Shown here piece by piece: positions 4,264 to 55,314 of a stretch of DNA of 64,000 nt (its first letter is position 1; each line of letters begins with the position of its first letter). The notes beneath the pieces are model-generated. The model did not search any database and was not told the origin of the DNA. It saw only the letters and a list, made by a program, of their open reading frames with translations. Origin of the DNA: Minisyncoccota bacterium (GTDB lineage: Bacteria; Patescibacteriota; Minisyncoccia; Phycocordibacterales; UBA5272). The translations under genes and the position numbers were made by a program. The stretch is from positions 627,521-691,520 of the forward strand of contig JBAZJW010000001.1 of assembly GCA_041651055.1 (NCBI GenBank), read 5' to 3'.

Positions 4264-4305
4264 CAGCTTAAAGCTAAAGGCTGGAAGCTAGAAGAAAATA
4301 CAGAG
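4205..4305 (+). repeat. ~100-nt segment identical to 11005-11105 (3' end and 3' flank of two paralogous surface-protein genes)
   Basis: Direct comparison of the two stretches ...ggcatggtctactctttcacacgagaagctatacgagctgaaagctgccagtaacagcttaaagctaaaggctggaagctagaagaaaatacag... Confidence 0.85.
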
Positions 4306-4335
4306 CGACCCCGAAGGGGTCGCTCTCTATTTTGC
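4303..4335 (+). terminator. rho-independent terminator
   Basis: AGAGCGACCCC-GAA-GGGGTCGCTCT hairpin followed by CTATTTTG. Confidence 0.7.
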
Positions 4336-4345
4336 CTTATCCCCA

Positions 4346-4351
4346 TATACT
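4346..4351 (+). promoter_or_regulatory. putative -10 (TATACT) within the conserved tatccccatatactaatcaaa upstream motif
   Basis: Motif shared with 7541-7563 upstream of the paralog at 7602. Confidence 0.3.
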
Positions 4352-4402
4352 AATCAAAAATTAGAAATAAGGAGTTATACTTACTTTATATTCTAATATC
4401 CT

Positions 4403-7400: not shown

Positions 7401-7456
7401 CTGGTATGGTGTATGACTTTACTCGTAACGCTATTAAGGTAGAGAGTTGTCAGTAA
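4403..7456 (+). CDS. giant secreted surface protein: PG-binding-like N- and C-terminal domains, right-handed beta-helix (pectate-lyase-like) repeats, two tandem Ig-like repeats, DUF4214-like segment
   Basis: 1017-aa ORF. Signal peptide MKKYILPVLLLALSFTNVQAQA; first ~130 nt nearly identical to 688-820. NN(T/I)I..N/G-rich parallel beta-helix repeats (NNTISCGNGLCGIGIDVG). LYNIFLRRNSDPSGELSFQNQL resembles DUF4214. C-terminal LQSFLIAKGLLAGNATGFYGDKTVEAVKAYQ domain. Confidence 0.85.
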   Translation: MKKYILPVLLLALSFTNVQAQAVPTTSSSCTDLSYNLGYGSNDGRTNGEVTKLQTFLSSLGYLKDKPNGYFGRSTFGALKSFQLSKGLTNSGYAGQQTRGVIKKMTCGSIPTSSMNSSDFKFPDQTSVLTKSSVLPKLVVSGTQSKPGLVLCGDGVVDKPSIDAGPILTSCFLANKNAGIIELLPGKYYIKSTIDIGNLSNITIKTKGVSSGSACLQVGSAPCAVLFATADNKGPVILKSEGASKLNLFYIAIDGNRLARWSPGTTPNWIKNNETDKYGTAYNAAIRYCDKCHFTGFASVRAPKGTGLEFIGADAVFDTTLFSDNGWQLSDWFSSNPEAGAFADGLTALISERIVIRNSEFSNNSDINLILGDAPGAVIENNIIKSDNKFVFAGLMVDNFMRINNVIKGRFDGTVIRNNTISCGNGLCGIGIDVGPYLWYAKKGETNVDVERVTGGIIANNTVFGARQGILVSGASGTTINNNTVNVAGTFKTPVGHYKKLNDYQTRECVTNSISASQGDTVTISDNKNSQGQTVVTTSNELRECHPYDLSDAVLDLSVPTIPPTPTAVITPTVTASWSPSIITSGQAATLTWSSTNATYCNVSHPNNTNTWNNAPTSRTTPYSSVITSDTTTVTCYNSTGQSDSKTVTLTVNPVILPTPTAVITPTVTASWSPSTITSGQAATLTWSSTNATYCNVSHPNNINPWNNAPTSRTTPYSSVITSDTTTITCYNQAGQSDSETVTLTVNQPSFCTDFTYSDYSLCQSGGIKTRSVVSSSPQGCTGGVPLTSISCSYVVKTTKVNTLYNIFLRRNSDPSGELSFQNQLSKGATLADVAWVLLTSPEGIATNGVNVQTMSVDSYVEFLYTAVLKRPSDVEGKRYWVATVNAGVTRKSALSSFLDSPESKITNSNLFLSYNLQNSSSISVDDKSIPTVLGDYISVPSCINLPQNLHRGAESSLVRLLQSFLIAKGLLAGNATGFYGDKTVEAVKAYQSSVNLPATGMVYDFTRNAIKVESCQ
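6092..6655 (+). repeat. tandem duplication of a 282-nt (94-aa) Ig-like domain unit inside the 4403-7456 CDS
   Basis: ccaaccccaacagctgtaataactcctaccgtcacagcatcctggtcacc... occurs at 6092 and again at 6374 with about 95% identity. Confidence 0.9.
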
Positions 7457-7513
7457 TAGGCTGTAGTTAATAGGTTTTGGTTGATGTGATACGAAATACA
7501 GAAAATATGAAAA

Positions 7514-7538
7514 GTGGCCACAAAGTGGCCGCTTTTTG
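7514..7538 (+). terminator. rho-independent terminator
   Basis: GGCCAC-AAA-GTGGCC hairpin followed by GCTTTTTGTG. Confidence 0.55.
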
Positions 7539-7553
7539 TGCCCCTATCCCCAT

Positions 7554-7559
7554 ATAATA
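7554..7559 (+). promoter_or_regulatory. putative -10 (TATAAT) in the conserved tatccccatataataatcaaa motif
   Basis: TATAAT 43 nt upstream of the ATG at 7602; ggaaggggg SD-like at 7573-7581. Confidence 0.35.
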
Positions 7560-7601
7560 ATCAAATAATGAAAGGAAGGGGGTATACTTAACTCATATCC
7601 T

Positions 7602-10600
7602 ATGAAAAAATATATTCTATCCACTCTTTTATTCGCCATATATCTTGGGTTTACAGGGGCTGAAATTGCATCAGCTGTAACGTCTTCTTATTCCATAGCT
7701 CCAGACGTAAACGTACCAGTAGTAACACTCTCTTCAAATGGAAAAAATGTTGTAAATGGTAGCACGGTTTTGATTTCTGATCGTAATGAAGCTACTCTGT
7801 CTTGGACAAGTGTGGGGGCAACGTCGTGTACCTTAAATGGTGTGGCTATACCAACTTCAGGTTCACAGTTATTTAGTAATTTCAAGATTGATTTTGGTTA
7901 TGCTGGTAACATTTTTAGTTGTACAAATGGATTTAAAAGTTCAAGGATACTATTTGACACACTCGGCCGGTCTACTAATGTAGAATCTATAAATATTAGA
8001 GTGATTCCACAATCTACATATGATGTGCGACCAGGAGAACCTGCTCAAATTGCTATCGAGGGTCAGGGTTTTAGCTCATGTACATTAGAATCTGAAGGGG
8101 CTCTTATTAAACTTGTCGAGCCATCAACTAATACAGTACACATAACGCCAGCCCTACAAAAAAATACAACATTCAAAGTTACTTGTACTAGGGGTGAATA
8201 TACTAAAGTTAAGGAGTTTACCATCGAGGTAATTCCAATTAATCCAGTTAAGTCAAAAACTTGCCCATTAGGACAAATCTATTATAGTGCTGAACCGGCC
8301 ATGGTTAATGGTACATATAATAGAGCTTATTTAGGGTGTGCCGAAGCCAAACCTTTTACATGTCTAGATGGATCCACTGTTTACACTAAGATTTTCGATA
8401 AAAGTTCTTCGTTCGCAATAAACGCTCAAGCGTGCTCATATCCAAATGTTACTGACAGTGCTTTATTCGTTAAGGTGGGAGAGGGGGAATATATAGATAG
8501 TCAAACAGAAGGAGTCGCTAATATCACCATTCCTGACAGTGCAAGCGGTAAAATTCTCGTGCTTTATAGTGATAATCCTGTGCATTGGATAATTGCCAAC
8601 CCAAATCATGTTCTCATTAAAAAAATACTTATCTTAGAATTAGAAAGTGGTCTAAATACTCAGCGTGCTGATGGGGATATTCAAAACATACCTCTAGAAA
8701 AGATAAAACTAGGTGGTCGTTTTGGGAATATTACTACTAACTTATTAGGAGGGTTCTATGGGGAGTTATCAGATGAGGTAAATACTTTTTTTAAAAATTC
8801 AGGAAATGATATCAGAGCTCTTATTGTTAGTCTTCTTAAACAAGGTATTTCTTTATCTCCTTACGACTACTATTATGCAAGCAGAGCAAGTGCTTTACCT
8901 GTTGGGGTATCTCCATCACCTACACTGTACACAAAGAAACAGAGTGAAATAGATGCAAAGAAAGCAGAAGAAGATGCAAAGAAAAAAGCAGCAGATGCTG
9001 CAATTGATCGTTTCTGGTTAGGATATAAATTTGCTTCTGGACTTAGTTTTCATAGTTATGTATACGAAAATAAAAATGTTTCAAATGATGCGATATTACA
9101 AAATAGCTATTTTTACTCAGCTGGACCTAGTCCTGTGCCTACGACAAAAGCAGAAGCGATCACTCGATGCAAGGATGACATATTGAGTAAAGTCGGCCAA
9201 GTAGCTCAATGTAAATGGAATGGAGAAGTCTTTGCTTCTTCAACTAATCCTTTACCTATGATGGATAACAAGCTTCTTTTTCCAAGTGGCGCATACAGTG
9301 AATATGATGGGTCTACGCTTATTTACTCTAAGCCTTCAATCTCTGCTATTAATGCAAAAGTTTTCTGTGACATGAGTAAGACCGTCCATCCAAATATTAA
9401 GTGTACTTTTGACGGAATTGATACATCGACACTAGATTTCGCTCGAAAAACTCCTGGATTTTTGCAGATATATGGAGATAGGTTTAGTGGATATTCTAAA
9501 TTTTTTAACTCTTTTGCTACTGGTAATGAAGGGTATAGTGCTGAAAATGACTGTATGCATTACTATACGTATCAGAAGCTTGGCTACATTATGCAAGAAC
9601 CCATTTTTACGGGGAGGTCACCAGAGAAGTACAATATAGAAAACTTTGACAAATCAAAAGCAAATGCTTTAAGAATGGCTTGTTATTGGAATGGACACTA
9701 CTTCTTTTCTTCGCCGGCAAATTACGACCCACTTAATAAACTACCTGAAAGTCTTCCCTCAATATCTTTGCCAGGAACATCATTGTTACGGGAAAGTGCG
9801 CCCTTTGTTGAGGTTAAAGCAAATAAAGGAACAATTCAACTTGGTGAATCTGTGACATTAAACTGGAACAGCATGTACACTGATTCTTGTTCTGCAAGCG
9901 GTGCTTGGAGCGGGGAATTAAGTACTTCTAGCAGTATTCGATCTGGATCTATTACTAAAACCCCAACAGCTCTTGGTGAACAAAAATATATTATTTCTTG
10001 TGCTGGGGTTGGAGGAACAGCAAGACATAGTGTGACTGTGAATGTGATATCTCAAAACGAAGTAAGTTCGTCGAATCAAACGAATACCCTTACACAGAAC
10101 ACTTCTGGTGAACGACTTATCACATCGTTAACTGCAAATCCTTCTACTATTTTTGGAAAAGGTACGACCACAATTACATTTACTTCATCTGGTACGGATT
10201 CTTGCTATATTGGAAATACCCGTTTATCGACTTCGGGAGCATACGTTACTCCTGTGCTTACTTATAATCCATCTTACTCTCCTTCGGTTATTTTTACACT
10301 TAAATGTTTTAAGGGTGAAAGTATGACTTCTAGAAATATATCAATCCTCGTCTCTTCTACTTCTTCTCCTTCTGCTGTATTACCAGCAGGTTGTACTTCT
10401 TCAACAATGTATAGTCCAACGACAGGGGTTCGTTGTCTTGCCACCTTAGCAACTACCCCTGTATGTAACTCAGAGCAGTATCTTGAAAACGGTGTTTGTA
10501 AGAATCTGACTCGTATTTGCCCTGATGGAAGAGTTATATCTGCCATGCTTAGTTGTGGTACATCAACGGTAAGCACTACTGCCACATCAAGTCTTTTGGT

Positions 10601-11063
10601 GTATCGTCAGTATTATGGACCCTCATTACAACAGCAAAGATCAAGAGTAACTAGATCTACAGCTATAAGTCTTTGTGCTGCTCGAGTACGTGCAATACAG
10701 GGACGAAAGACTTCTGGACTTACGACATACAACGATGTATCAAAGATACGATGCACCTGGGGAACAGAACAGCTTTACCCACTCAGGACTTCATCTTTAT
10801 CAGAAGGGTCTCTTGTCCTTGGTTCTTCGACAGTCTGTACCAGCCTCCCATACAACCTTCATCGTGGAGCTGAATCTCCATCAGTAGTTTCTCTTCAGAC
10901 ATTTCTTTCCTCTAAAGGATTCCTAGAAGGAGAAGCTACCGGTTTCTACGGAGACAAAACGGTAGAAGCAGTAAAAGCATATCAATCATCGGTAAATCTC
11001 CCAGCTACAGGAATGGTCTACTCTTTCACACGAGAAGCTATACGAGCTGAAAGCTGCCAGTAA
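7602..11063 (+). CDS. giant secreted surface protein with Ig-like repeats and C-terminal PG-binding-like domain
   Basis: 1153-aa ORF. Signal peptide MKKYILSTLLFAIYLGFTGAEIASA. Several L.W.S....C...G Ig-like units. Last ~75 aa almost identical to the C-terminus of the 688-4263 protein (…GMVYSFTREAIRAESCQ). Confidence 0.85.
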   Translation: MKKYILSTLLFAIYLGFTGAEIASAVTSSYSIAPDVNVPVVTLSSNGKNVVNGSTVLISDRNEATLSWTSVGATSCTLNGVAIPTSGSQLFSNFKIDFGYAGNIFSCTNGFKSSRILFDTLGRSTNVESINIRVIPQSTYDVRPGEPAQIAIEGQGFSSCTLESEGALIKLVEPSTNTVHITPALQKNTTFKVTCTRGEYTKVKEFTIEVIPINPVKSKTCPLGQIYYSAEPAMVNGTYNRAYLGCAEAKPFTCLDGSTVYTKIFDKSSSFAINAQACSYPNVTDSALFVKVGEGEYIDSQTEGVANITIPDSASGKILVLYSDNPVHWIIANPNHVLIKKILILELESGLNTQRADGDIQNIPLEKIKLGGRFGNITTNLLGGFYGELSDEVNTFFKNSGNDIRALIVSLLKQGISLSPYDYYYASRASALPVGVSPSPTLYTKKQSEIDAKKAEEDAKKKAADAAIDRFWLGYKFASGLSFHSYVYENKNVSNDAILQNSYFYSAGPSPVPTTKAEAITRCKDDILSKVGQVAQCKWNGEVFASSTNPLPMMDNKLLFPSGAYSEYDGSTLIYSKPSISAINAKVFCDMSKTVHPNIKCTFDGIDTSTLDFARKTPGFLQIYGDRFSGYSKFFNSFATGNEGYSAENDCMHYYTYQKLGYIMQEPIFTGRSPEKYNIENFDKSKANALRMACYWNGHYFFSSPANYDPLNKLPESLPSISLPGTSLLRESAPFVEVKANKGTIQLGESVTLNWNSMYTDSCSASGAWSGELSTSSSIRSGSITKTPTALGEQKYIISCAGVGGTARHSVTVNVISQNEVSSSNQTNTLTQNTSGERLITSLTANPSTIFGKGTTTITFTSSGTDSCYIGNTRLSTSGAYVTPVLTYNPSYSPSVIFTLKCFKGESMTSRNISILVSSTSSPSAVLPAGCTSSTMYSPTTGVRCLATLATTPVCNSEQYLENGVCKNLTRICPDGRVISAMLSCGTSTVSTTATSSLLVYRQYYGPSLQQQRSRVTRSTAISLCAARVRAIQGRKTSGLTTYNDVSKIRCTWGTEQLYPLRTSSLSEGSLVLGSSTVCTSLPYNLHRGAESPSVVSLQTFLSSKGFLEGEATGFYGDKTVEAVKAYQSSVNLPATGMVYSFTREAIRAESCQ

Positions 11064-20320: not shown

Positions 20321-20974
20321 ATGAGCATTCTGAATGGCTTCACACCGCAGACAAGAATTGGTCGTGTTTATCAACCAGGATTTCAATTCGACAATCACCC
20401 TTTCTTCGTCAGGACTTTGGAGGAAAAGGATGGAAATCCTCAGTCACCCACTGTGAATTTTTTCAACGGGGAAGGTTGGGAGGAAATTTTTCGTGGCAGT
20501 CTTCCTGCGAAGGTTGTAACGCTTCTGCTTGAGTGTTCGGTCACAGAGCAAAAGCGTTATGAAAGCTACAAGAATAATCCGACAGGAGAATACCGGCCGT
20601 ACAGAGGGCATGGTCCGGCCATGCGGGCCATCTCCCTCCTTTTTATTGCTTTAGCATGCCTTCTTCTTGGGTTGATCGTCACAGCAGTTCTTCTTGGCTT
20701 CGGGCCATACAAATCAATCCTTGTTGGAGTGTTAACGCTTGCGCTTTTACTGTGGCTCCCCAGTGTTTACTTCCGTGTCACCTCAAAAATCCTCAACAAA
20801 AAATTTGCACAAATTTTCGTTGACTATATGAAGTGTGACAAGTCCTTAAGGGGTAAACAGGGGGAAGTTGTCGCCGTTTTGCGCAAGGTGGAACTTTTGT
20901 GTAAAAATCAAAAGAGAGCAAATCTTGCGACTGTTGTGGATGTGGAAAAAGAAATCCTTCGCCTTCTGAGGTGA
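20321..20974 (+). CDS. hypothetical membrane protein (two predicted TM helices); inserted between rplX and rplE
   Basis: 217-aa ORF. Hydrophobic stretches AISLLFIALACLLLGLIVTAVLLGF and ILVGVLTLALLLWLP. GC content visibly above the flanking r-protein genes. No similarity recognised. Confidence 0.55.
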   Translation: MSILNGFTPQTRIGRVYQPGFQFDNHPFFVRTLEEKDGNPQSPTVNFFNGEGWEEIFRGSLPAKVVTLLLECSVTEQKRYESYKNNPTGEYRPYRGHGPAMRAISLLFIALACLLLGLIVTAVLLGFGPYKSILVGVLTLALLLWLPSVYFRVTSKILNKKFAQIFVDYMKCDKSLRGKQGEVVAVLRKVELLCKNQKRANLATVVDVEKEILRLLR

Positions 20975-21075: not shown

Positions 21076-21687
21076 ATGGGAGAAAGGTTGGTTGCAGTCA
21101 TGACTTTTATCCTACCGCCACAAAGCGACAGTGATTATCCAGTACGAATGCTCGGCGCCATTCAGTCGGCCTGCGACGCCATGTCAGACGGCAAGCAGAT
21201 TCTTTTCGAGAAGGATCTCTCTGACTACTTCACTGCGCAAGAGCTTTTCCACATGCTTTGGGATATGCAAAATAGGACTGAAGCTCCTCGCGGCGATGAT
21301 TGTCTGGCTCCTCCAGATCCTCTGTACCATAGGGCCCCTGTTCGGAAGGTTGTTGGGAAGGTTCTTCAAGGAGAATGTCCGCCTTCCTGTGAGAATGATG
21401 AGCAGCGCGCCGAATGGTTCATGGGTATTCTGAACTCCTGCGTTCTCTATGAAAAGTTTTGGACCCGGACAACCGCTTATGTCACAAGCATGAAGGAAAT
21501 CGACCTGGGTGTTGATATCGGGGGATACAGCCAACCGGTCACCGTTCTGTTCGACTCCGAGAAGACAGGCCAAAACGCTCGCCCCATCGCGGAGCGGGTG
21601 GTCAAAAAGCTTTTGGACGCGGTGACTGCTCACGTGGAGCAGTATTTGAGAGATGTGTACACCTACCCACAAAGTCCTGCGCCCTGA
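21076..21687 (+). CDS. hypothetical protein (higher GC; start may be the ATG at 21103)
   Basis: 203-aa ORF with CTG/GCG/CGG-rich codon usage unlike the neighbouring genes; no recognisable domain. Confidence 0.5.
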   Translation: MGERLVAVMTFILPPQSDSDYPVRMLGAIQSACDAMSDGKQILFEKDLSDYFTAQELFHMLWDMQNRTEAPRGDDCLAPPDPLYHRAPVRKVVGKVLQGECPPSCENDEQRAEWFMGILNSCVLYEKFWTRTTAYVTSMKEIDLGVDIGGYSQPVTVLFDSEKTGQNARPIAERVVKKLLDAVTAHVEQYLRDVYTYPQSPAP

Positions 21688-42309: not shown

Positions 42310-45300
42310 ATGCGTAATTTCTCAATGAAGGCTGCTACATCAGTAGCTGTCCTCGGAGGTATCGTAGTTAGTGCAGTTTCTGCATCAGCTGCTCTCAACC
42401 TTCCAACACAGAGCTGTTCATATTCGTTCAACACGAATATGAAGCTTGGCTCACGTGGCACAAGTGTTATGGATCTTCAAAAGGTTCTTAACATGTACCC
42501 ACAAACACAGGTATCTGCATCAGGTGCTGGATCTCCAGGAATGGAATCTTCATACTTCGGTGCTGCTACTCGTACAGCTGTTAACAAGTTTCAGGCTCTA
42601 CACCTTGTAGAACTTGGAATCTCAGCTCCTACAGGTAACGTGTTCGCAGGAACACGTGGTCTTCTAAATCAGGTTTGTGGTGGTTCAACAGGTAGTGTTT
42701 CAACACTTCCAGCTGGATGTACATCAACAGCAGGATTTAGTCCTGTAACAGGTGCATCATGTGCAACTGGTACAGTTACAAACCCAGGTACAGTAGTATC
42801 TGGTCCAGTTTCAGCAATGCTTGCAGGCTCACAGCCAACAGGTATGATCGTTTCTGGTCAGTCAGGTGCTCGTCTAGCAGACATCACATTCACTGGAAAC
42901 GGAACAGTTACATCTGTTCAGCTACAGCGTACTGGTGTTTCAGCAGACACAACAATTAACAATGTCTACCTATACGAAGGAAATACTCGAATCACTGATT
43001 CAGCTTCTGTAGTAACAGGTGGTTACATCAACTTCAACGCTTCTAATGGTCTCTTCACTGTTAATGGCTCACGTACAATCACTGTACGCGCTGACATTGC
43101 ATCAAGTATCACTGGACAGTCAGTTGGTGTAAAGCTTAACAGTGTAACTGCAGGTGGTTCCGTATCTACATTCACAAATGTAAACGGTAATCAGCTAACA
43201 GTTGCTTCTGTTGATACATCTCATGTTAACTTTGCAGCTCTTACACAGTCTGCACTTACTCCAGCAGCTGGAACTTCAAACTACATCGTTTGGTCAGGCT
43301 CAGCTTCAGTAAGTACACGTAGTGTTAACTTCAAGGCAGCAACATTCAAGTTCGTTGGTTCAGCTCCAGTTGACGCTATCCAGAATCTTAACCTCTTCGT
43401 AGATGGTTCTAAGGTTTCAGGTCCAGTGGCAATCAACGCTGCAAACAACAACAAGGTGACGTTTGACCTAGGAGCTACTCCTTACCTTCTAACAACAGGA
43501 ACACACACAATCGAAGTTCGTGGTGATATCGTAAAAGGATCATTCCGTACAGCGACTTTCTCAGTTGAGAATGTGTCAGACCTTATGTTCGAAGATTCAA
43601 ACCTAGCTGGTGTTAACGTTTCAGCTACAATCCCTAACTCAAGTACAGCGTTCACACAGAGTGCTGCTACTTATGGAACAATTACTGTACAGAAAGGTTC
43701 TGTAACAGTAAACGTTGACCCAGCTTTCACTGCATCAAAGGTGACAGGTGGAGCAACTAACGTTCCAGTAGGACAGTTCACAATGAAGGCATACGGTGAA
43801 GATGTTAAGGTTTCAACACTCCGTGTTGCTATCGCTACATCATCAAATGCATCATTGACTACGTTCAACAACGTATCATTGTATGCAAACGGTGGCCAGA
43901 TTGGAACTTCACAGAACTTCACAGTGGCTGCTCGTCAGTCACCTGGATACCTTACATTCACTCTAGGTTCATCACTTATTATCCCAGCTGGTACAACTGT
44001 AACTCTTACAGTTAAAGCTGATATCGTAGACAGCTCATCTGCTGCATACACATCAGGTACAATGACTGCGACAATCAGTGGTCCTACAGGAAATGCACAG
44101 GGACAGAGTTCATACGAAGCTGTTGACGTTGCAACAGGTGGTGTTGCCGGTAACGTTCTTACTATCTCATCAGGTGTAGGAACATTCGGACGCACATCAG
44201 GATTCACAGCAGTAACTGTGGCTCCTAACACATCAGCTGCAGTGAAGATTGCATCATTCACACTACAGGCAAACTCAGCGGAAGCTGTACGTGTCTCAAG
44301 TGTAAGTATCAATCCAACTATTGCTAACGGTGATATCACTAACTATAGTAATTTCACTCTAAAGAATGGTTCAACAAACCTTGCTAATCCAATCGGAAAC
44401 CCAGCAGCAGGAACATCAACATTCTCACTTCTTAATGACATTACAATTCCAGCAAGTGGAACAATGACATTCGATGTGTACGCTAATGTTGGTGGAGACG
44501 TTAATGCAACAATTACAACAGATATGGCCGTAACAAGTCGTGGCGTTGTAAGTAACACATCAACAGTTTCATCAGCTGCAGGAACAGGGGCAACAGTTAC
44601 ATCAGCACTTTCTACTCTTGCTGCTTCAACACTAACGTCATCATCACCAGTAGCACAGTATGTGGTTGGTGGTTCAACATTCGGTGTTGCAACATACAAG
44701 ATCAAGACAGCTGTTGCTGGAACAGTAGCAAATGTTACTGATCTTAGTTTCGGAACTACAGGAGCAGATGCTATCCAGAGCATCACTGTAACTTGGGCGG
44801 GAGGAACATCAGTATCTACACCAGTCGCTGGTTCTGGCGATACTGCTACTACAACCGTTTCAGGTCTTAGTATCCCAGTTACATCAAACGGTACAGACGT
44901 AACTGTTGTTGCTAAGTTCTCAGGATTCCAGAATACCGTTGCCGCAGGTAATCTTTCTGCAAGTATTGCCACAGTTAAGGTTACTCTAAGTAACGTTAAG
45001 GCAACTGCTGGAACAGGGTCACCTATCGAAGACGCTACTCAGGTTCCTTCAAACACAATGTCACTTGTTTCTTCAAAGCCTATCGTAGAAATGAGTGCTG
45101 GTAACACAGATACACTCGTTCTTGGTTCTGAAAACAAGGTTGGTGAATTCAAAGTAACTGCAGATCTAAATGGAAGTATCTCTGTCTCAACGACATCACT
45201 TTCAGTTTCAACTGTAGGTATCACAAACCCAGAATTCACTGCATATCGTATTGCTGATGGAAACACAACAATCACGAGCGGTGTGTACGTATCTGCATCT

Positions 45301-45537
45301 TCAACGCCAGTGTTTACATTCACTCCAGCGTATGAAATTGCAGCCGGACAGACAAAGACATTCTCAGTGTATGCAAACGTTGCTGGTGCAGCACAGGCAA
45401 GTATCACACCATATGTGACATCTCGTCTTACATCAGCTTCATCATTCACTTGGAAGGATGTTAACGGTGGTAGTTCAACTCAGACTGGAGCTGCTATCTA
45501 TAACTTCCCAACATCAAGCTTCTCAACAAAGCGATAA
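42310..45537 (+). CDS. giant secreted surface protein: N-terminal PG-binding-like domain plus many Thr/Val/Ser-rich Ig-like repeats; C-terminal domains homologous to the N-terminal region of the 688-4263 protein
   Basis: Signal peptide MRNFSMKAATSVAVLGGIVVSAVSASAA; SCSYSFNTNMKLGSRGTSVMDLQKVLN...YFGAATRTAVNKFQALHLV...VCGG domain. ...SPVAQYVVGGSTFGVATYKIKTAVAG...GADAIQSITV...PVTSNGTDVTVVAKFSGFQNT aligns to 688-ORF residues ~120-230. Confidence 0.8.
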   Translation: MRNFSMKAATSVAVLGGIVVSAVSASAALNLPTQSCSYSFNTNMKLGSRGTSVMDLQKVLNMYPQTQVSASGAGSPGMESSYFGAATRTAVNKFQALHLVELGISAPTGNVFAGTRGLLNQVCGGSTGSVSTLPAGCTSTAGFSPVTGASCATGTVTNPGTVVSGPVSAMLAGSQPTGMIVSGQSGARLADITFTGNGTVTSVQLQRTGVSADTTINNVYLYEGNTRITDSASVVTGGYINFNASNGLFTVNGSRTITVRADIASSITGQSVGVKLNSVTAGGSVSTFTNVNGNQLTVASVDTSHVNFAALTQSALTPAAGTSNYIVWSGSASVSTRSVNFKAATFKFVGSAPVDAIQNLNLFVDGSKVSGPVAINAANNNKVTFDLGATPYLLTTGTHTIEVRGDIVKGSFRTATFSVENVSDLMFEDSNLAGVNVSATIPNSSTAFTQSAATYGTITVQKGSVTVNVDPAFTASKVTGGATNVPVGQFTMKAYGEDVKVSTLRVAIATSSNASLTTFNNVSLYANGGQIGTSQNFTVAARQSPGYLTFTLGSSLIIPAGTTVTLTVKADIVDSSSAAYTSGTMTATISGPTGNAQGQSSYEAVDVATGGVAGNVLTISSGVGTFGRTSGFTAVTVAPNTSAAVKIASFTLQANSAEAVRVSSVSINPTIANGDITNYSNFTLKNGSTNLANPIGNPAAGTSTFSLLNDITIPASGTMTFDVYANVGGDVNATITTDMAVTSRGVVSNTSTVSSAAGTGATVTSALSTLAASTLTSSSPVAQYVVGGSTFGVATYKIKTAVAGTVANVTDLSFGTTGADAIQSITVTWAGGTSVSTPVAGSGDTATTTVSGLSIPVTSNGTDVTVVAKFSGFQNTVAAGNLSASIATVKVTLSNVKATAGTGSPIEDATQVPSNTMSLVSSKPIVEMSAGNTDTLVLGSENKVGEFKVTADLNGSISVSTTSLSVSTVGITNPEFTAYRIADGNTTITSGVYVSASSTPVFTFTPAYEIAAGQTKTFSVYANVAGAAQASITPYVTSRLTSASSFTWKDVNGGSSTQTGAAIYNFPTSSFSTKR

Positions 45538-47853: not shown

Positions 47854-48762
47854 TTAACCCCTAACTTGGCCCACTAGTAGGTACGATTTATAGGTCTCGA
47901 TATATTTCATGAAGCGTTCATAATCTTCCGGCGTTGTCATGGCATCATGTGTCGTATCAGTGAATGTTGTATTCGTGAGTCCGATGATGTGAGCTTTCTT
48001 ATTCATTTGTTCTGTAAAAGCTTTCTCACCAAGTGCTTGTGCATACAGTTTGTTTACCTCGGTATCACCAGAAAATAATTGCGGTATAAGTGTTTTTCTT
48101 GTCGTCGTGCTTATACCGTCCATGCTTAGTATCTCATTATCTTGTGTTAAAAATTCAAGCGAGATAGTGGCAACCATAAGCCTTGTCATTACGTCACTTG
48201 AAATCGTAGGAGTTGTGGTGGCAGAAGGGGAAAAATCATCATCACCTCCGCGCGTAATAATAATGGGCATACCTCTTGTGATGAAGTCATACACTCGACG
48301 GGCGTCATCATCTTCGAGACGGATACACCCTCCACTGTAAGTGCTTGAGACTTTTGTTCCGTCTGGATAGTATGGAATACCGTGAATAAAGTAATTGCCA
48401 AAGAGATGCACACTATAAGGCATATAGACATGGCCAATAGAACTAAAATGAAGAGCTTCTTTGTAGTCGCTCACATAGCTCCCCCCAATAGTTTCATAGT
48501 AGCTACCAGGTTTTCCTTGAGAGACAAGAGGAATGGTTGCGAGTGTTGTTGTTCCATCGCGAAGATCAAGGGTCATACTATCTAAATGAATCAATACGTA
48601 ATTCCCTACGTGTTGTGGAGCTGGTATTATTACTTCGCTCTGAGGCTCTGTGTGTATTTCTGCTTCTCCTATATTCGGAGTAAAGAGGTACCAGGCGCTA
48701 CTTATGAAAAGAAGAACGAAGAGAAATGAGAGGGTGATGTATCCGGGAGTGAAATGCTTCAT
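47854..48762 (-). CDS. L,D-transpeptidase (YkuD domain) with N-terminal membrane anchor
   Basis: Catalytic signature FIHGIPYYPDGTKVSSTYSGGCIRLEDDDA (HG...S.GC.R); start placed at MKHFTPGYITLSFLFVLLF (internal Met of the longer 47854-48873 ORF). Confidence 0.75.
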   Translation of the reverse strand: MKHFTPGYITLSFLFVLLFISSAWYLFTPNIGEAEIHTEPQSEVIIPAPQHVGNYVLIHLDSMTLDLRDGTTTLATIPLVSQGKPGSYYETIGGSYVSDYKEALHFSSIGHVYMPYSVHLFGNYFIHGIPYYPDGTKVSSTYSGGCIRLEDDDARRVYDFITRGMPIIITRGGDDDFSPSATTTPTISSDVMTRLMVATISLEFLTQDNEILSMDGISTTTRKTLIPQLFSGDTEVNKLYAQALGEKAFTEQMNKKAHIIGLTNTTFTDTTHDAMTTPEDYERFMKYIETYKSYLLVGQVRG

Positions 48763-48898
48763 AAGAGCTTCGACTATACCATAAAAGTGGATAATCCTCC
48801 ATCTGTGAGGTGTAGAAGGCTGTATACTAAAGGTACCTTTATATGTCGAATATAAAGGTGTATATATACACACTTTATTTCTAGTTTAGAACTCTCTT

Positions 48899-49567
48899 AT
48901 GTTATTAAATCCAGTCGATATTTTGGGGAATGCACTTGTAGATACAAGTCTTACGCTTGCAGCCTTTCTTCCTAATGTCATCATCGCAGTTATCATCTTC
49001 GCTCTTGGATGGGCGTTTGGTTCTGTATTAGGACGTGCAGTTTCTCATCTTATTACCGTTCTTCGTATTGATAATGCGCTTCACAAAGCTGGAATGGATG
49101 CAGTGAGTGAACGTGCCGGTGTAAAGGTTAGTCTCGCAGGTTTCTTGGGTGGCGTTATCAAGTGGCTTGTTATCGTGGCATTCACGGTTGCATCAGCTGA
49201 GATACTTGGACTCACACAGGTTACGCAACTTCTTCGTGATATTCTCATGTACATTCCGCAAGTGATCATTGCGTCTATTGTCCTTGTTATTGCGATGCTT
49301 GTTGGAGACTTCGTCGCTCGTCTCGTGAAGCATTCAGTGAAGGCGACAGGAATGAAAGGGGATTTCGCGGCCCAGGTTGCAAAGTGGGCAATCATCATCG
49401 TAGGTGGTGTATTCCCAGCGCTTACACAGCTACGTATTGCTTCAGGTCTCGTGGAAGTTCTTTTCACTGGTGTGGTGTTCGCTATTTCGCTTGCTCTCGG
49501 TCTTTCATTTGGACTAGGAGGACGTGACGCAGCAGCTCGTGCTATTGAGAAAATGAAGGCACAGTAG
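48899..49567 (+). CDS. integral membrane protein with repeated TM_helix-like units (MscS-N-terminal-like)
   Basis: 222 aa, 5-6 hydrophobic helices; repeated ...A..G..L..V..L.....I.. units. Confidence 0.45.
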   Translation: MLLNPVDILGNALVDTSLTLAAFLPNVIIAVIIFALGWAFGSVLGRAVSHLITVLRIDNALHKAGMDAVSERAGVKVSLAGFLGGVIKWLVIVAFTVASAEILGLTQVTQLLRDILMYIPQVIIASIVLVIAMLVGDFVARLVKHSVKATGMKGDFAAQVAKWAIIIVGGVFPALTQLRIASGLVEVLFTGVVFAISLALGLSFGLGGRDAAARAIEKMKAQ

Positions 49568-49621
49568 TTGGGGACAGTGTAAAGGCGAGAGTGTAAAGTT
49601 TAGAGGAAACACCAACACTAG

Positions 49622-49652
49622 AGAAAAGCGCCCTGCCGGGCGCTTTTCTCTT
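49622..49652 (+). terminator. rho-independent terminator
   Basis: GAAAAGCGCCC-TGCC-GGGCGCTTTTCTCTTTG. Confidence 0.7.
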
Positions 49653-49783
49653 TGCTTTTTCACCTATTGACAAATATCCCCAGTATGGTATACTGGAAAC
49701 TGTCGACGGTGGCTAATTAGCTTATGGGGCACGGGTTCGTGTTCTGGGGTTAAGGTGCACTGTATCTTTACGAGGAGATCGAC

Positions 49784-50257
49784 ATGAAGCTCTTGAAAAA
49801 CATTTTGTTGGCTGTCATGGCCATCGCGTTGGTTTCGTTGTTGGCCGCTTGCGGTGAACAGAAGTTCACGACTGATGAAGTCTTGCGGGTCAGTGAAAGC
49901 GCGGCCACCCGTGCGGCTGCGGACGCCAAAGCTCTCGAAGCCTCCAAGGCCGATGCAAAGTGGGTCCGCGCGCGCTCCGAGCTCCGGCAAATGGGTGCTG
50001 TCACGGCAGTCACTGGCAAGTTTTTGATCACCGACAACTGCAAGGTGAAACCGGACGGCTTCACGCAGTTGCAAGCGAACAAGGACTTTCCGAGCACCGC
50101 CTTCACCGAGTTCAACGCCGGCTGCACCAGCAAGGTGTACGCCATGAAGGCCGAACGTGATAAGGCGAAAAATCGCAACGTTCCGGCCGAGCGCAGGACT
50201 GTCGCTAAAAAAGCCGCCGCCAAGCAGCACGTGGCCCAGGCCAATCTGCGGCGGTGA
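49784..50257 (+). CDS. GC-rich lipoprotein (likely horizontally acquired)
   Basis: Signal peptide with lipobox MKLLKNILLAVMAIALVSLLAACGE. Local GC far above the window average (GCG/GCC/CGC/CTG codons). Precedes the rRNA promoter. Confidence 0.6.
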   Translation: MKLLKNILLAVMAIALVSLLAACGEQKFTTDEVLRVSESAATRAAADAKALEASKADAKWVRARSELRQMGAVTAVTGKFLITDNCKVKPDGFTQLQANKDFPSTAFTEFNAGCTSKVYAMKAERDKAKNRNVPAERRTVAKKAAAKQHVAQANLRR

Positions 50258-50412
50258 CTCAACCGCCCCGTGCCGCATACGCGGCACCCCAAGACCCCAA
50301 AGATTAACCATCTGCGGGGCCTTTTTTATTGTCTATTTTCAGTATTCATAGTAGGTATTTGTATGAACCTCCTAACTCCTAACAGTAAGCCTCTAACTTG
50401 TGCTTAAAGTGC

Positions 50413-50441
50413 TTGACTTTCAATTCTCATTTTGATAGTAT
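50413..50441 (+). promoter_or_regulatory. rRNA promoter TTGACT-17-TAGTAT with TG extension
   Basis: ttgact ttcaattctcattttga tagtat; ~290 nt upstream of the 23S 5' end. Confidence 0.55.
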
Positions 50442-51228
50442 GTGAATCACTGCTTGATGATAAAAAACGAAACTATAACCAACTAACCCGGAGGCCAAGT
50501 AACGTTTCGTTACTAGCCGCCGATAAGGCGGATTTTATTTTCTCAAAATTGTTAAGCAGATTGCAGTTCTCTGACAACAGAATCCCGTGCACAACACGCG
50601 CAACAGTACTGTTATCCAGTAGTAGAATTTGATTCACTGGGGTCTAGCGGAGTTTGTGACACGGACACATGAAAAAAGACAATACATGTAGAGAGCGGAG
50701 CGGTCCAATCTCTACAGTGATAGTTATGTTTCCTAATAGGAACATAAGAGCACACGGTGGATGCCTAGGCTCTAAAGAGCGATGAAAGACGTTGTCAGGC
50801 TGCGATAAGTTTCGGGGAGGCGCCTAACAGCCCGCGATCCGGAAATTTCTGAATGAGGAAACTCAATGCGAGTAATGTTGCATTGTCATAGCAAGCATTT
50901 GCATGACGCTCACCCAGGGAAGTGAAACATCTCAGTACCTGGAGGAAAAGAAAATAAAAATTATTCTGCAAGTAGCGGCGAGCGAAAACAGAGAAGCCCA
51001 AACCGACAGTAGTAATACTGTGCGGGGTAGTAAGATAGAAACGTAGTTTACTAGAAGAGTTACAAAAGGTATGTATAGATAAAGTTGTTGGAAAGCAACG
51101 CCAAAGAAAGTGATAGCCTTGTTATCGAAATGCATACCCCTCTTTTGTTTCTAATCTTGAGTAATTCGAGACACGAATAGCTCGGATGAATCAACCGGAA
51201 CTAACCGGTAAGGCTAAATATCTTTAGA

Positions 51229-51274
<46 letters not shown>

Positions 51275-52690
51275 GGAAGGGGAGTGAAATAGAACTGAAA
51301 CCGTGTGTTTACAAGGAGTAGAAGAGGGCGCATCACACTGTGTGTGATGCCTTTAAACATTTAAATATTTAAATGTGCATCACGCTTAGCGTGATGCGTC
51401 CTCGACTGCGTGCCTATTGAAGAATGAGCCAACGAGTTATAGGTTACTGCAGGCTAAGTGGTATAAAGTCACGGAGCCATAGCGAAAGCAAGTGTGAATA
51501 GCGCGAACAAATTGTAGTAGCTTATAGACCCGAAGCCGAGTGAGCTTACCATGAGCAGGGTGAAGTTTATCGAAAGGTAAATGGAGGCCCGAACCAGTAG
51601 GTTGTACGACTCCTTTGGATGACTTGTGGTAAGGAGTGAAAAGCTAATCGAACTCGGTAATAGCTGGTTCTCTCCGAAATAGTTTTTGGACTAGCGTCGC
51701 GTGTTCCCTTTGGGGGTAGAGCACTGGAAGGTTTTGACTAGTAGCAATACGGCAACACCTATCAAACTCCGAATACCAAAGGTTAAAAATGCGGCAGTAA
51801 GACCACGGGGGCGAAGCTCCGTCGGTCAAAAGGGAAACAGCCCAGATCTCAAGTTAAGGCCCCAAAGTATATATTAAGTGTAAGCGAGGAGGTGGAGTTT
51901 CATTGACAATGAGGATGTTGGCTTAGAAGCAGCCATCATTGAAAGAAAGCGTAACAGCTCACCCATCGAGAGACTCTGCGCCACAAATAATCGGGACTCA
52001 AATATATCGCCGAAACTGAGGGCTTCATTGGTGTCACAACCATTGGAGCGGTAGGAGAGTGTTCCACTCTGCGTTGAAGCTAAAGGGGTAACCCATAGTG
52101 GAGCGTGTGGAAGTACGAATGTTGGCACAAGTAACCGCAATGGGGGTGAGATCCCCCCACGCCGAAAGAATAAGGTTTCCTATTCAATGATTGTCAGAGT
52201 AGGGTTAGTCGGGCCTAAGGAGATGGCGAATGCCGGATCCGATGGACATAATGTTAATATTCATTAACTCGGTACTAATGTGATGGGATGACGGAGTGTA
52301 GTATATAGAGCGACTTATTGGATTGTCGTTTATTGCGTAAGGGTGAGGTACAGGGAAATCCGTACTTCTGGTTTTAATGCCGACTCCAAGCGTTGTATGA
52401 AGATGATGGGCAACCTGATTCAACTCTATAAAGCACGCTTCCGAGAAAAGTCTCTACATCTGATGCATATCAGACGTGCGCATCGCAGAGCGATGCTTGA
52501 AATTTAAATATGTAAATATTTAAATTTCACATCACTAGGTGATGTGCATGCTTAAGTTAGTATTGATCCGTACCGCAAACCGACACAGGTATTCAGGTCG
52601 AGTAGACCAAGGCGAACGAGTGATATCTCCCTAAGGAACTAGGCAAAAAAGCGGCCGTAAGTTAGCGATAAGGCCTGCCCTCACCACTTT

Positions 52691-53143
52691 GCGTTTAAAG
52701 TCGCAGTGACAAAATTACTTCATCTACTTTGTCGCAGCATCGTTTTTGTCAGTCGCCGTACTATATGTACGACTTCTTCCAAAAGCTCGCTGCTTCTCGT
52801 AGCTAAAGCAATTTTCTCACTGCTTGCAAAAGTGGAGAGTTCTAGGAAATTAGATAAAATATTGAGACAAATCGTAATTACAGTAGAGCTACTGTAATTA
52901 CAAAAACATGTGTAATACGTAAGTAATTGTGGATTTCGTGAAGGAAATGTATGGACCGCGGTAGGTCTGCATCGAGATTTAAGAATCCGATGTGGTGGTG
53001 GCGTTCGACTCGCTATTATTTCATACGTGGACTTCCGGGAAGGTGACTTCCCGTCTTTCACGAAATTCATAATTACAAACTAATTACATACAAAATAGTG
53101 TGATGGAAATCAGTTTCCTCGAGCTCTTCATTACTTTGAAAAT
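52691..53143 (+). other. ~453-nt insertion at the tip of 23S helix 63 (IVS/expansion; non-coding)
   Basis: Flanking stem ctgccctcaccacttt (52675-52690) pairs with aaagtggtgggggc (53144-53157). E. coli has ~40 nt here. No credible ORF. Contains copy D of the 90-nt hairpin repeat. Confidence 0.7.
52715..52820 (+). repeat. copy D of the ~90-nt hairpin repeat family, embedded in the 23S helix-63 insertion
   Basis: TTACTTCATCTACTTTGTCGCAGCATCGTTTTtgtcagtcgCCGTACTATATGTACGACttcttccAAAAGCTCGCTGC... Confidence 0.65.
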
Positions 53144-53303
53144 AAAGTGGTGGGGGCCGCAGCGAAAGTTTCCCTAGCGACTGTTTACCAAAAACACAGC
53201 TTCCTGCGAACACGTAAGTGGATGTATAGGAGGTGACGCCTGACCAATGCGGGAAGGTTAAATATCGGTGGTAATTTATTGCTGGATGATATAAGCCCCC
53301 GTC

Positions 53304-53536
<233 letters not shown>

Positions 53537-54201
53537 AGCGAAATTCCTTGTCTGGTAAGTTCAGACGTGCACGAATGGCGTAACGACTGGGGAACTGTCT
53601 CAGGGAGTAGCTCGGTGAAAATACAGTACCGGTGAAGATGCCGGTTACCCGCAGATAGACGAAAAGACCCCGTGAGCTTTACTCTAGCTTGATATTGAGT
53701 ATGTTCAATTACTGCGTAGCATAGTGACGAGAGGTTTGATGTGTATGGTTTCGGCTGTACTCTACTCGACAGTGAAATAGTCATCTGTAATTGGGCATAC
53801 TCTAACGTGAACGGAAAAAACGTTCGCAGACAGTATCTGGTGGGGAGTTTAACTGGGGCGGTTTCCTCCTAAAAGGTAACGGAGGAGTTTATTAAGGTCA
53901 TCTAGGCGCGAATGGAAACCGTGCCGATAGCGTAAGGGCATAAGATGGCTTGACTGTAAGACGGGCATGTCGAGCAGACACGAAAGTGGGACCTAGTGAA
54001 CCTACACTACGCTTTAGACGCGGGTGCAGATTAACGGATAGAAGCTACCACGGGGATAACAGGCTAGTTGTGCCCAAGAGTTCATATCGACGGCACAGTT
54101 CGGCACCTCGATGTCGGCTCATCTTATCCTGGTGGTGGAGAAGCTACCAAGGGTATGGCTGTTCGCCATTTAAAAAGATACGTGAGCTGGGTTCAAACCG
54201 T

Positions 54202-54683
54202 GGAGGAGTGAATTATACAGAACGATTACTAACGTTATTTTCTCAAATAACATCAGTTAGCAATCAATTCAGTTTTGTATAATTGACTTCTCCTAGTTTG
54301 AACCCGAGGAGTTAAGACTAAACTTAACAAAAAGACATTAATCACGGCGGCATATATCAGTAATGGTATATGGCAAGCCAACTAATATCGGAAGAATCTT
54401 ACTCGAGCAATCGAAAGACAATTCCGAGGGAAGTATTATAGATTTTTTTGGTGAGGGGAGATTGGAATATGAGTGGATCCTCTGCGCGAGCAGTCAGGGT
54501 AACCTCGACCATAACTAATGGTCCTTCCTACCTTTCCTCACCTCTCCTAAAGAATCTAGAATACACCCGTAGAGACTATACGTTGGCAGTCTTGTTAAAA
54601 ACAAGATGAAGCTCTAGTCCGATCCCTTTAGAAATAAAGGTTCTCATGGTTTGGAAACCACAATGAGATGTAAAACACTAATG
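54202..54683 (+). other. 482-nt insertion in 23S domain V near E. coli position ~2590-2595 (GAACGU^CGUGAGACAG); putative ORF-less group I intron
   Basis: Removing 54202-54683 restores gttcaaaccgt|cgtgagacaggttggt. 5' exon ends in U, insert ends in G. No ORF inside. Confidence 0.55.
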
Positions 54684-54736
54684 CGTGAGACAGGTTGGTT
54701 TCCTATCTTCTGCGGGCGTTCGAATATTGAAAAGAT

Positions 54737-54767
<31 letters not shown>

Positions 54768-55208
54768 TGACCTCTGGTGTGTGGGCTCTGACGCCAGTCG
54801 GAGCGCCCAGTAGCTATGTCGGGAATGGATAACTTCTGAAAGCATCTAAGAAGGAAGCCAACTTTAAGATAAGTATTCGTTGAAGGGTCGTAAGAGATTA
54901 TTACGTTGATAGGAGCTAGGTGTACGCACAGTAATGTGTTTAGCCAAGGCTTACTAATTACCCGAATCCTATTAGGAAACATGACTAGCACAAAAGGCTA
55001 GTTAGCGTATGGAGCACTAGTTGTCTACTAGAAAGTTTCATACTGTATTGTCTTTCATGTGGTGTGTGGAGGTTGCATGTTCTTACATTAATACTTCGGT
55101 ATTAATATAAGTCACGTGACTTCCACACACCACAGGAAAGAGTTCTTTTTTCATGTGTTTGATTCTGTATGGCTTGTAAAAGCGATACAAATAACTTGAA
55201 TGGTATAT

Positions 55209-55314
55209 GGAACCGTAGCTCAGCTGGTAGAGCCCTAAACTAGTCTTGAATAAAGATGAGTTTCTTGGGATTCTTAATCCAGGTGCGCAAGTTCGAATCT
55301 TGCCGGTTCTGCCA
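55209..55314 (+). tRNA. tRNA-like gene between 23S and 5S with ~30 extra nt in the anticodon/variable region (anticodon unresolved; possible short intervening sequence or class-II-like arm); CCA encoded
   Basis: GGAACCG-TA-GCTCAGCTGGTAGAGC (acceptor + D arm) ... GCAAGTTCGAATCTTGC (T arm) ... CGGTTCT-G-CCA. The 50 nt between the D and T arms cannot be folded into a canonical 17-nt anticodon arm. Confidence 0.5.

Follow-up and report, generated by a model that had tools for sequence, protein, structure and literature searches.

A GC-rich gene for a putative surface lipoprotein of Paceibacterota-type bacteria with a codon-usage anomaly conserved across lineages and genomic locations

Genes with an atypical content of guanine and cytosine (GC) are routinely taken as recent horizontal acquisitions. 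The locus described here raises the question of how such a composition arises and persists when it is found in a whole gene family. The window analysed is a 64-kb stretch (64,000 nucleotides) of contig JBAZJW010000001.1 from a Minisyncoccota bacterium (assembly GCA_041651055.1, positions 627,521 to 691,520, forward strand). It contains a short gene encoding a 157-residue prolipoprotein (49784-50257, + strand), standing out by its GC content. A preliminary description made from the sequence alone had proposed that this gene was probably acquired horizontally, possibly from a high-GC host such as an actinobacterial partner. The outlier status of the gene and its foreign-like codons agree with this proposal; a recent import by this genome from such a partner does not fit the data presented below. 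Instead, we lean towards a resident, family-wide trait of codon usage, limited to the coding sequence (CDS) and held by selection on synonymous sites.

Compositionally, this gene stands out more clearly than anything else in the window, as first described. The CDS has a GC content of 58.6% (0.586; 0.55, 0.46 and 0.75 at the first, second and third codon positions, GC1 to GC3) compared with 42.6% (0.426) for the window. Its GC3 of 74.7% compares with approximately 37% around it: 0.747 versus 0.371 +/- 0.035 in 20 neighbouring genes (z = 10.8). Sliding windows of 474 nucleotides had a mean GC of 0.426 (standard deviation 0.034), with a maximum of 0.61 at the lipoprotein gene and a next peak of 0.54; the next outlier gene of the window (21076-21687) has a GC content of 52.5% and a GC3 of 0.57. 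Since 150-nucleotide windows with a GC of at least 0.56 span positions 49788-50363, the GC island of about 650 bp reported initially corresponds to the CDS and the GC-rich hairpins on its 3' side. An antisense open reading frame (ORF) of 215 residues (49664-50311) was considered as a gene and rejected; its GC1 equals the sense GC3, and the frame is an automatic by-product because the sense gene avoids A-ending Leu and Ser codons.

The product was correctly called a lipoprotein. Its N-terminus, MKLLKNILLAVMAIALVSLLAAC continuing with GE, has a basic n-region (K2 and K5), a hydrophobic core and a lipobox L-A-A-C ending at Cys23, which together make a signal peptide with a lipobox of the form [LVI][ASTVI][GAS]C. 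The protein is recorded as WC444_03560, a hypothetical protein of Candidatus Paceibacterota encoded on a contig of 775 kb. A word-indexed search of 5.8 billion proteins returned the query itself and three relatives, and an exhaustive search of 1.84 billion cluster representatives with a profile returned 34 matches with E <= 0.001 (23 below 1e-10), all of them metagenomic. About 30 of these 34 were full-length lipoproteins of 136-208 residues, the remainder being fragments or marginal matches. The only named sources were Paceibacterota and Nomurabacteria, and the matches with a retrievable context lay in low-GC candidate phyla radiation (CPR)-type contigs. A scan of genome contigs added one more CPR-type locus and two metagenome scans gave no match. 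No named homologue outside the CPR was found by single-sequence search, by two profile searches of the 5.8 billion proteins or by the exhaustive profile search, and the collections of viral contigs, phages and plasmids searched contained no family match. No Pfam, NCBIfam or PHROGs family reached threshold. As a search for a donor lineage, this effort therefore yielded metagenomic members only. The protein belongs to an undescribed family of small surface lipoproteins, so far found only in metagenomic CPR/Paceibacterota-type genomes.

DNA was retrieved for 13 independent loci (the window itself and others numbered from L001), which fall into four genomic contexts. The first is found in eight lineages (the window, L001-L004, L007, L008/L009 and L010/L011) and has the order rplJ-rplL, other genes, a YkuD-type gene on the minus strand, a gene related to mechanosensitive (MS) channels and the lipoprotein gene, sometimes with a small extra ORF beside the latter; where the contig reaches far enough (L002, L007, L008, L010), it continues into the 23S-tRNA-5S operon or its leader. 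The second (L005/L006 and L014) places the gene between Band_7 and rpsB-tsf, the third (L012/L013 and L016/L017) between an AspRS-type gene and GH18, followed by scpAB and cell-wall genes, and the fourth is represented by L015. One locus of the first context, L004 (JAOBWF010000436.1, 1-4881), was deposited in a metagenome-assembled genome (MAG) labelled Acidobacteria. Its gene order, rplJ-rplL-x-YkuD-MS channel-lipoprotein, is of the Paceibacterota type at about 46% GC, and this contig is therefore most likely mis-binned.

The GC excess was found at 13 of the 13 loci and in all four contexts. The GC3 of the lipoprotein gene ranged from 0.55 to 0.90 against backgrounds of 0.24 to 0.52 (z = 5.7 to 13.5), the lineages keeping it 30-45 points above background, whereas the adjoining MS-channel gene has a normal GC3. 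The switch in composition occurs at the start codon: the 120 nucleotides upstream have a GC content of 23-47% and the CDS 52-67%, the first 22 codons having already a GC3 of 0.69 and the rest 0.76. The GC3 of the gene followed that of its genome (Pearson 0.83, Spearman 0.95; n = 10 genomes, not phylogenetically independent), with a logit offset of 1.67 and a standard deviation of only 0.30.

Synonymous turnover was measured at 4-fold degenerate sites of conserved residues, by comparison with permutations preserving the family-specific codon usage of each gene. At these sites, 40 of 45 lipoprotein pairs could not be told from saturation (p >= 0.05), nor could 10 of 15 MS-gene pairs. In two genome pairs, the excess of 4-fold identity was greater in the lipoprotein gene than in the MS gene, despite far more diverged lipoproteins: between the window and L004, 0.60 was observed against 0.38 expected (MS gene, 0.45 against 0.34), and between L002 and L007, 0.74 against 0.50 (MS gene, 0.38 against 0.32). 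Slower synonymous change of this kind is what one expects when synonymous sites are constrained. The shared locus of eight lineages with near-saturated 4-fold sites, the equally GC-rich members in three other genomic contexts, the constant offset to the GC3 of each host and a native promoter and leader conserved on the unit all argue against a recent import from a high-GC partner.

The promoter and leader belong to a self-contained resident transcription unit (49667-50330), made of promoter, leader, Shine-Dalgarno sequence, CDS and terminator. It starts after the intrinsic terminator of the upstream gene (49620-49651, + strand, a 14-bp stem then a T-run), and an equivalent hairpin precedes the lipoprotein promoter in 12 of 12 aligned loci. 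The promoter (49667-49694, + strand) is made of TTGACA, a 16-nucleotide spacer with a TG extended -10 and TATACT, and matches 11 of 12 consensus positions. Across the 12 loci and four contexts, TTGAC is invariant and the A and T positions of the -10 element are invariant or nearly so, the consensus of the aligned upstream regions being TTGAC[AT]-17-TAtAaT, directly after the upstream terminator. The flanks had been described as unlike the native terminator style; in fact, both terminators of the unit are ordinary GC stems with T-runs and the promoter is a near-consensus sigma-70 site.

Counting from a transcription start placed by the promoter position, the mRNA has a structured 5' leader of about 82 nucleotides (49702-49783, + strand), in which a helix between a 5' GUCGAC and the UCGAC that immediately precedes the AUG surrounds a further hairpin; a strong Shine-Dalgarno sequence (GAGGAG, 49772-49777) lies within the leader, ahead of the clamped bases. 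The leader folds with a minimum free energy of -30.2 kcal/mol (z = -2.6). This clamp is common to five loci (the window, L003, L007, L008 and L010), 13 of 27 predicted pairs being maintained through changes on both sides, and it had no Rfam match. The clamped leader could serve as a translational control or mRNA-stabilising element. After the CDS, two hairpins (50270-50287 and 50291-50323) and a T-run form the 3' untranslated region (UTR) and terminator (50270-50330, + strand; minimum free energy -25 kcal/mol, z = -4.3), the second hairpin and T-run being conserved in L002. At 11 loci, neither base pairing of the 5' with the 3' UTR nor terminal inverted repeats flanking the CDS did better than shuffled sequences. 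The downstream limit of the unit is the promoter-like site of the 23S-tRNA-5S operon (50413-50441, + strand; TTGACT, 17 nucleotides, TAGTAT, with TG), which is conserved in L002 and L007 together with the leader that follows it. The position of the gene directly ahead of the rRNA promoter agrees with the preliminary description.

The shift towards G/C-ending codons affects 18 of 18 degenerate amino-acid families of the lipoprotein genes, and it is not uniform. Codons that increased include GCC (0.11 to 0.55), GGC (0.15 to 0.64), CGC (0.17 to 0.61), CCG (0.17 to 0.61), ACC (0.15 to 0.52) and CTG (0.04 to 0.35); AAG reached 0.79, and NNC codons made up 0.75-1.0 of the two-fold pyrimidine-ending families. 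GGG decreased (0.15 to 0.07), GCG was unchanged at 0.17 and GAA was still the majority Glu codon (0.57). The preference for C over T exceeded that for G over A. In 5,044 codons of native highly expressed genes (those for EF-Tu and ribosomal proteins), another set is favoured, namely CGT, GGA, CTT, TCA, CCA, ACA, NNC and AAG, and the lipoprotein gene as an extreme of native translational selection was rejected.

Use of GCC, GGC, CGC, CCG, ACC, CTG/CTC/TTG, AAG and two-fold NNC codons raises the GC content in the translated region only, and according to the reading that we favour, this pattern is re-created or held in each lineage against an AT-biased background, at near-constant strength. The most likely cause would be selection on synonymous codons tied to translation or lifetime of the mRNA, through tRNAs other than those serving bulk synthesis, through deliberately slow decoding or through a stable GC-rich message. 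We consider it improbable, if worth stating, that the gene is tuned for translation in one physiological state (starvation or a host-attached stage) or that it tracks, or is re-seeded from, GC-rich hosts. Were the codons to mirror another translation environment, the gene would be a built-in marker of a host link or lifestyle switch in uncultivated Paceibacterota.

Several results weigh against maintenance by selection. Only about one family member in three had a retrievable DNA context, and the genomes behind the background correlation share part of their history. The codons of the lipoprotein genes lie off the native axis of translational selection: when expressed as logarithms relative to lowly expressed genes, their usage and that of highly expressed genes had a correlation of -0.02. 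They are the codons that the organism's genes for EF-Tu and ribosomal proteins use least (CTG 0.01, CCC 0.01, GCC 0.08, GGC 0.09), and the set resembles that of a foreign high-GC gene, as the preliminary description had noted; our impression is that it looks more proteobacterial than actinobacterial. No direct sign of the target of such selection was seen. An Akashi test of translational accuracy was null (GC3 of 0.735 at conserved residues versus 0.754 at variable columns). The lipoprotein mRNAs folded better than their synonymous-codon permutations, and so did control genes (mean z of -1.95 versus -1.15 in 18 controls; Mann-Whitney p = 0.10).

Signs of gene flux bear on the same question. 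The lipoprotein and MS-gene trees are not congruent (distance correlation r = 0.13), and the lipoproteins of L002 and L007 have termini in common and different centres. Between L005 (8411-8956) and L014 (151-687), two samples of a single population, the gene had 21 substitutions and a 9-nucleotide indel in 537 nucleotides, compared with 4 differences in 562 nucleotides of flank; polymorphism was 5.7 times denser in the gene (Fisher p = 4e-4), with differences clustering in the signal peptide and the C-terminal tail. Allele exchange therefore probably occurs, since polymorphism is denser in the gene than in its flanks within one population. Unrelated GC-rich ORFans beside the lipoprotein gene come and go between fairly close genomes, a turnover that looks like gene flux from a GC-richer pool, and their overall codon profile resembles that of the lipoprotein genes (r = 0.84).

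Taken together, the foreign-like codons uncorrelated with native optimal codons, the ORFans, the discordant trees and the local hot spot of polymorphism are what recurrent import would predict. The family would then reside for the most part in a GC-richer reservoir not yet sampled (host bacteria, or a mobile element of the CPR bacteria), from which copies repeatedly enter or overwrite CPR loci, each being young enough to retain the codon usage of its donor. We regard this possibility, the main rival of our reading, as doubtful, with some weight nonetheless. The searches described above found no named member outside the CPR and none in viral, phage or plasmid collections. No integrase or transposase, tRNA target or flanking repeat was present in 49400-50760, and an inverted repeat around the CDS was no better than chance. 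Atypical composition is the one property shared with transfer islands; patchy absence at the locus, closer homologues on a donor side and mobility hallmarks were not found, and the gene is present at the equivalent locus in L001-L004, L007, L008 and L010. Imports would need to hit the same four intergenic sites repeatedly, with the ATG joined each time to the same native promoter and leader, and copies of varied age would not be expected to show so tight a GC3 offset to their recipients. Selection rather than repeated import would thus appear to maintain the composition of the gene, possibly for one of the purposes outlined above.

The indications of allele exchange and the clustered polymorphism could also reflect GC-biased gene conversion, lifting GC locally at a recombination hot spot. 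This is a very improbable cause of the pattern: the shift is codon-specific, with GGG down and GCG unchanged, the choices between C and T and between G and A are asymmetric, the onset is exactly at the start codon, and the MS-channel gene, which would be a recombination arm, has a normal GC3. Generic GC pressure is disfavoured by the same codon specificity, C/T asymmetry, normal flanks and start-codon boundary.

More improbable still is the explanation closest to the preliminary proposal, in which an ancestor received the gene once, long ago, and amelioration since then has been passive and is still incomplete. It would account for the compositional anomaly, the foreign-like codons and the shared locus in related lineages. 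However, between most lineages the gene and its neighbour have reached, or nearly reached, synonymous saturation, and passive decay should have erased an excess that is found in every lineage and at four different loci. Third positions have turned over yet GC3 is high everywhere, a result that one old transfer, ameliorating passively, does not account for.

An assembly chimera or contaminating high-GC DNA, for which the GC step itself is the only argument, is excluded, because identical loci recur in independent samples and assemblers (L005/L006, L008/L009, L010/L011, L012/L013 and L016/L017; two differences in 8.5 kb between L008 and L009, none within the lipoprotein gene) and the same junctions are found in eight lineages.

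The protein itself is predicted to comprise a signal peptide (codons 1-22), the lipid-modified Cys23, a helix (residues 30-77), a tip knob (78-102) and a second helix (103-156) carrying a basic Ala/Lys-rich tail that is present across the family. The lipobox cysteine is invariant in 35 of 35 aligned members, and so are two further cysteines, C86 and C114 in the numbering of the window protein; the tip region is conserved around the motif NC.V.P. An AlphaFold2 model built from the 35-sequence alignment (mean predicted local distance difference test score 92.7) is a long antiparallel helical hairpin, in which C86 and C114 would form a disulfide bond. Fold searches gave no informative match. The protein would be a component of the envelope or cell surface.

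Further ORFs were observed near several of the lipoprotein genes. L016 encodes a predicted membrane protein ORFan of 303 residues (5905-6816, GC3 0.76) without counterpart in the fairly close L012, and L008 a GC-rich ORFan of 69 residues beside the lipoprotein gene (8470-8679, GC3 0.59). A GC-rich, cysteine-rich ORF of 64-66 residues (CxxC ... HCF ... C, zinc-ribbon-like) that has a separate promoter and terminator lies upstream of the lipoprotein gene in L007 (4163-4357) and downstream of it in L001 (788-988); it had no family match and no such ORF occurs in the window. A 66-residue ORF lies upstream of family member P0028. The ORFans of L016 and L008 suggest that GC-rich accessory genes accumulate at the sites around the lipoprotein gene. 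Just upstream of rplJ, L008 (3110-3853) and L010 (5005-5634) have an IS200-like Y1 transposase gene (PF01797) whose GC content is very low (29-30%).

In the window, the immediate upstream neighbour of the lipoprotein gene encodes a 222-residue membrane protein with the conserved transmembrane helix of mechanosensitive channels (48899-49567, + strand; Pfam MS_channel_1st_1, E = 1.7e-15). Its composition is normal (GC3 0.37), and the protein is 75-80% identical to the L002 and L004 orthologues, which also adjoin a lipoprotein gene. Two genes upstream of the lipoprotein gene lies the YkuD-type L,D-transpeptidase gene (47854-48873, - strand; Pfam YkuD, E = 1.9e-9), found in an equivalent position in L004, L007, L008, L010 and L011.

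Downstream, the 23S rRNA (50734-54976) is followed by a tRNA-like element and 5S; no 16S gene was found in the operon or elsewhere in the window. The 23S gene spans 4243 nucleotides compared with a model of 2925, and therefore contains about 1.3 kb of insertions, probably introns. Neither strand had an ORF of at least 110 residues resembling a homing endonuclease, as judged by appearance and without a Pfam comparison. The 23S genes of relatives span 3.9-4.8 kb, and L009 has a LAGLIDADG ORF between 23S and 5S. The 103-nucleotide tRNA-like element (55209-55311; Rfam, 42.8 bits) was not called by ARAGORN, which found no tRNA anywhere in the 64 kb, and may be an intron-containing or otherwise odd tRNA; its equivalent in L010 (16140-16215) was called as tRNA-Phe with anticodon AAA. 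Elsewhere in the window, the S10/spc ribosomal-protein operon contains two ORFs without a Pfam match (20321-20974 and 21076-21687), in the interval from the L14/L24 region to L5. Another four ORFs are very large (1017-1191 residues; 688-11063 and 42310-45537), have a GC2 higher than GC1 and a GC3 of 0.25-0.28, and are probably giant surface proteins with a skewed amino-acid composition.

Here, the usual equation of atypical GC with recent transfer fails for an entire gene family, whose anomaly is conserved over deep divergence, in different genomic locations and at different host compositions, and has the start codon as its boundary. Maintained by selection, it would be a clean natural case of gene-specific, long-term conservation of synonymous composition in tiny genomes, where codon selection is expected to be weak. 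The family, with its predicted helical stalk and cysteine-flanked tip, is a candidate component of the envelope or of host contact in CPR bacteria. Methods that detect transfer or contamination from composition, as well as binning, will mishandle such genes; many family members lie on contigs of 1-2 kb and one was placed in the MAG labelled Acidobacteria. The lipoprotein gene may ultimately be of foreign origin or undergo continuing exchange.

Among known systems, the locus is similar to a horizontally acquired islet in its atypical GC and codons, in lacking an assigned function and in its accessory-looking position between core genes. Unlike an islet, it occupies the same place in all eight related lineages found, no donor or mobility features were found, and its anomaly outlasts synonymous saturation and scales with the GC3 of the host. 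It also recalls the 'moron' cassettes of phages, being one gene that has a promoter and a terminator of its own and differs in composition from its surroundings; however, the gene does not lie in a prophage, the flanks are core genes (a cell-wall enzyme, a channel-like protein and the rRNA operon), and no convincing PHROG, phage or viral-contig match was obtained for the lipoprotein. Braun's lipoprotein Lpp is likewise small, strongly promoted and mostly alpha-helical, and in its main context the family lies near an L,D-transpeptidase (YkuD) gene. There is no homology between the two (no match to Lpp, PF04728, in Pfam or NCBIfam), the predicted structure is an intramolecular hairpin of helices whose tip is flanked by cysteines, not a single helix, and the C-terminal lysine for attachment to peptidoglycan is not conserved, family C-termini being RR, HA, YV, QG, KG and others.

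At the codon level, the gene may be compared with the regulatory use of non-optimal codons, being built from codons that bulk highly expressed genes avoid. Elf et al. are said to have set out in 2003 a bacterial theory of selective tRNA charging under starvation. To our knowledge, a shift as large as the present one (approximately 40 GC3 points over an entire gene family) is without precedent. In other systems, non-optimal codons can uncouple the translation of a gene from the main tRNA pool (for example PMC5066624).

The nearest precedent for a surface-lipoprotein gene of high GC in a low-GC genome is the vls system of Lyme-disease Borrelia (vlsE and its silent cassettes). There, the surface-lipoprotein gene has a GC content of about 49% compared with about 28.6% for the genome, across species, which was read as strong selection maintaining composition (PMC11499132). 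In both cases the gene keeps its high GC across species while its sequence diverges. The analogy has limits: in vls, the coding strand has a GC skew of about 0.5, G-runs occur in clusters and silent cassettes in arrays serve gene conversion, whereas the lipoprotein genes have a skew of -0.09 to +0.03 and 1-4 G-runs per gene, no second copy or silent cassette was found by tblastn and blastn in the 64-kb window, and there is no relationship in sequence or fold. What is apparently new, compared with these systems, is a gene of atypical composition in which this composition is itself conserved and, as it appears, selected.

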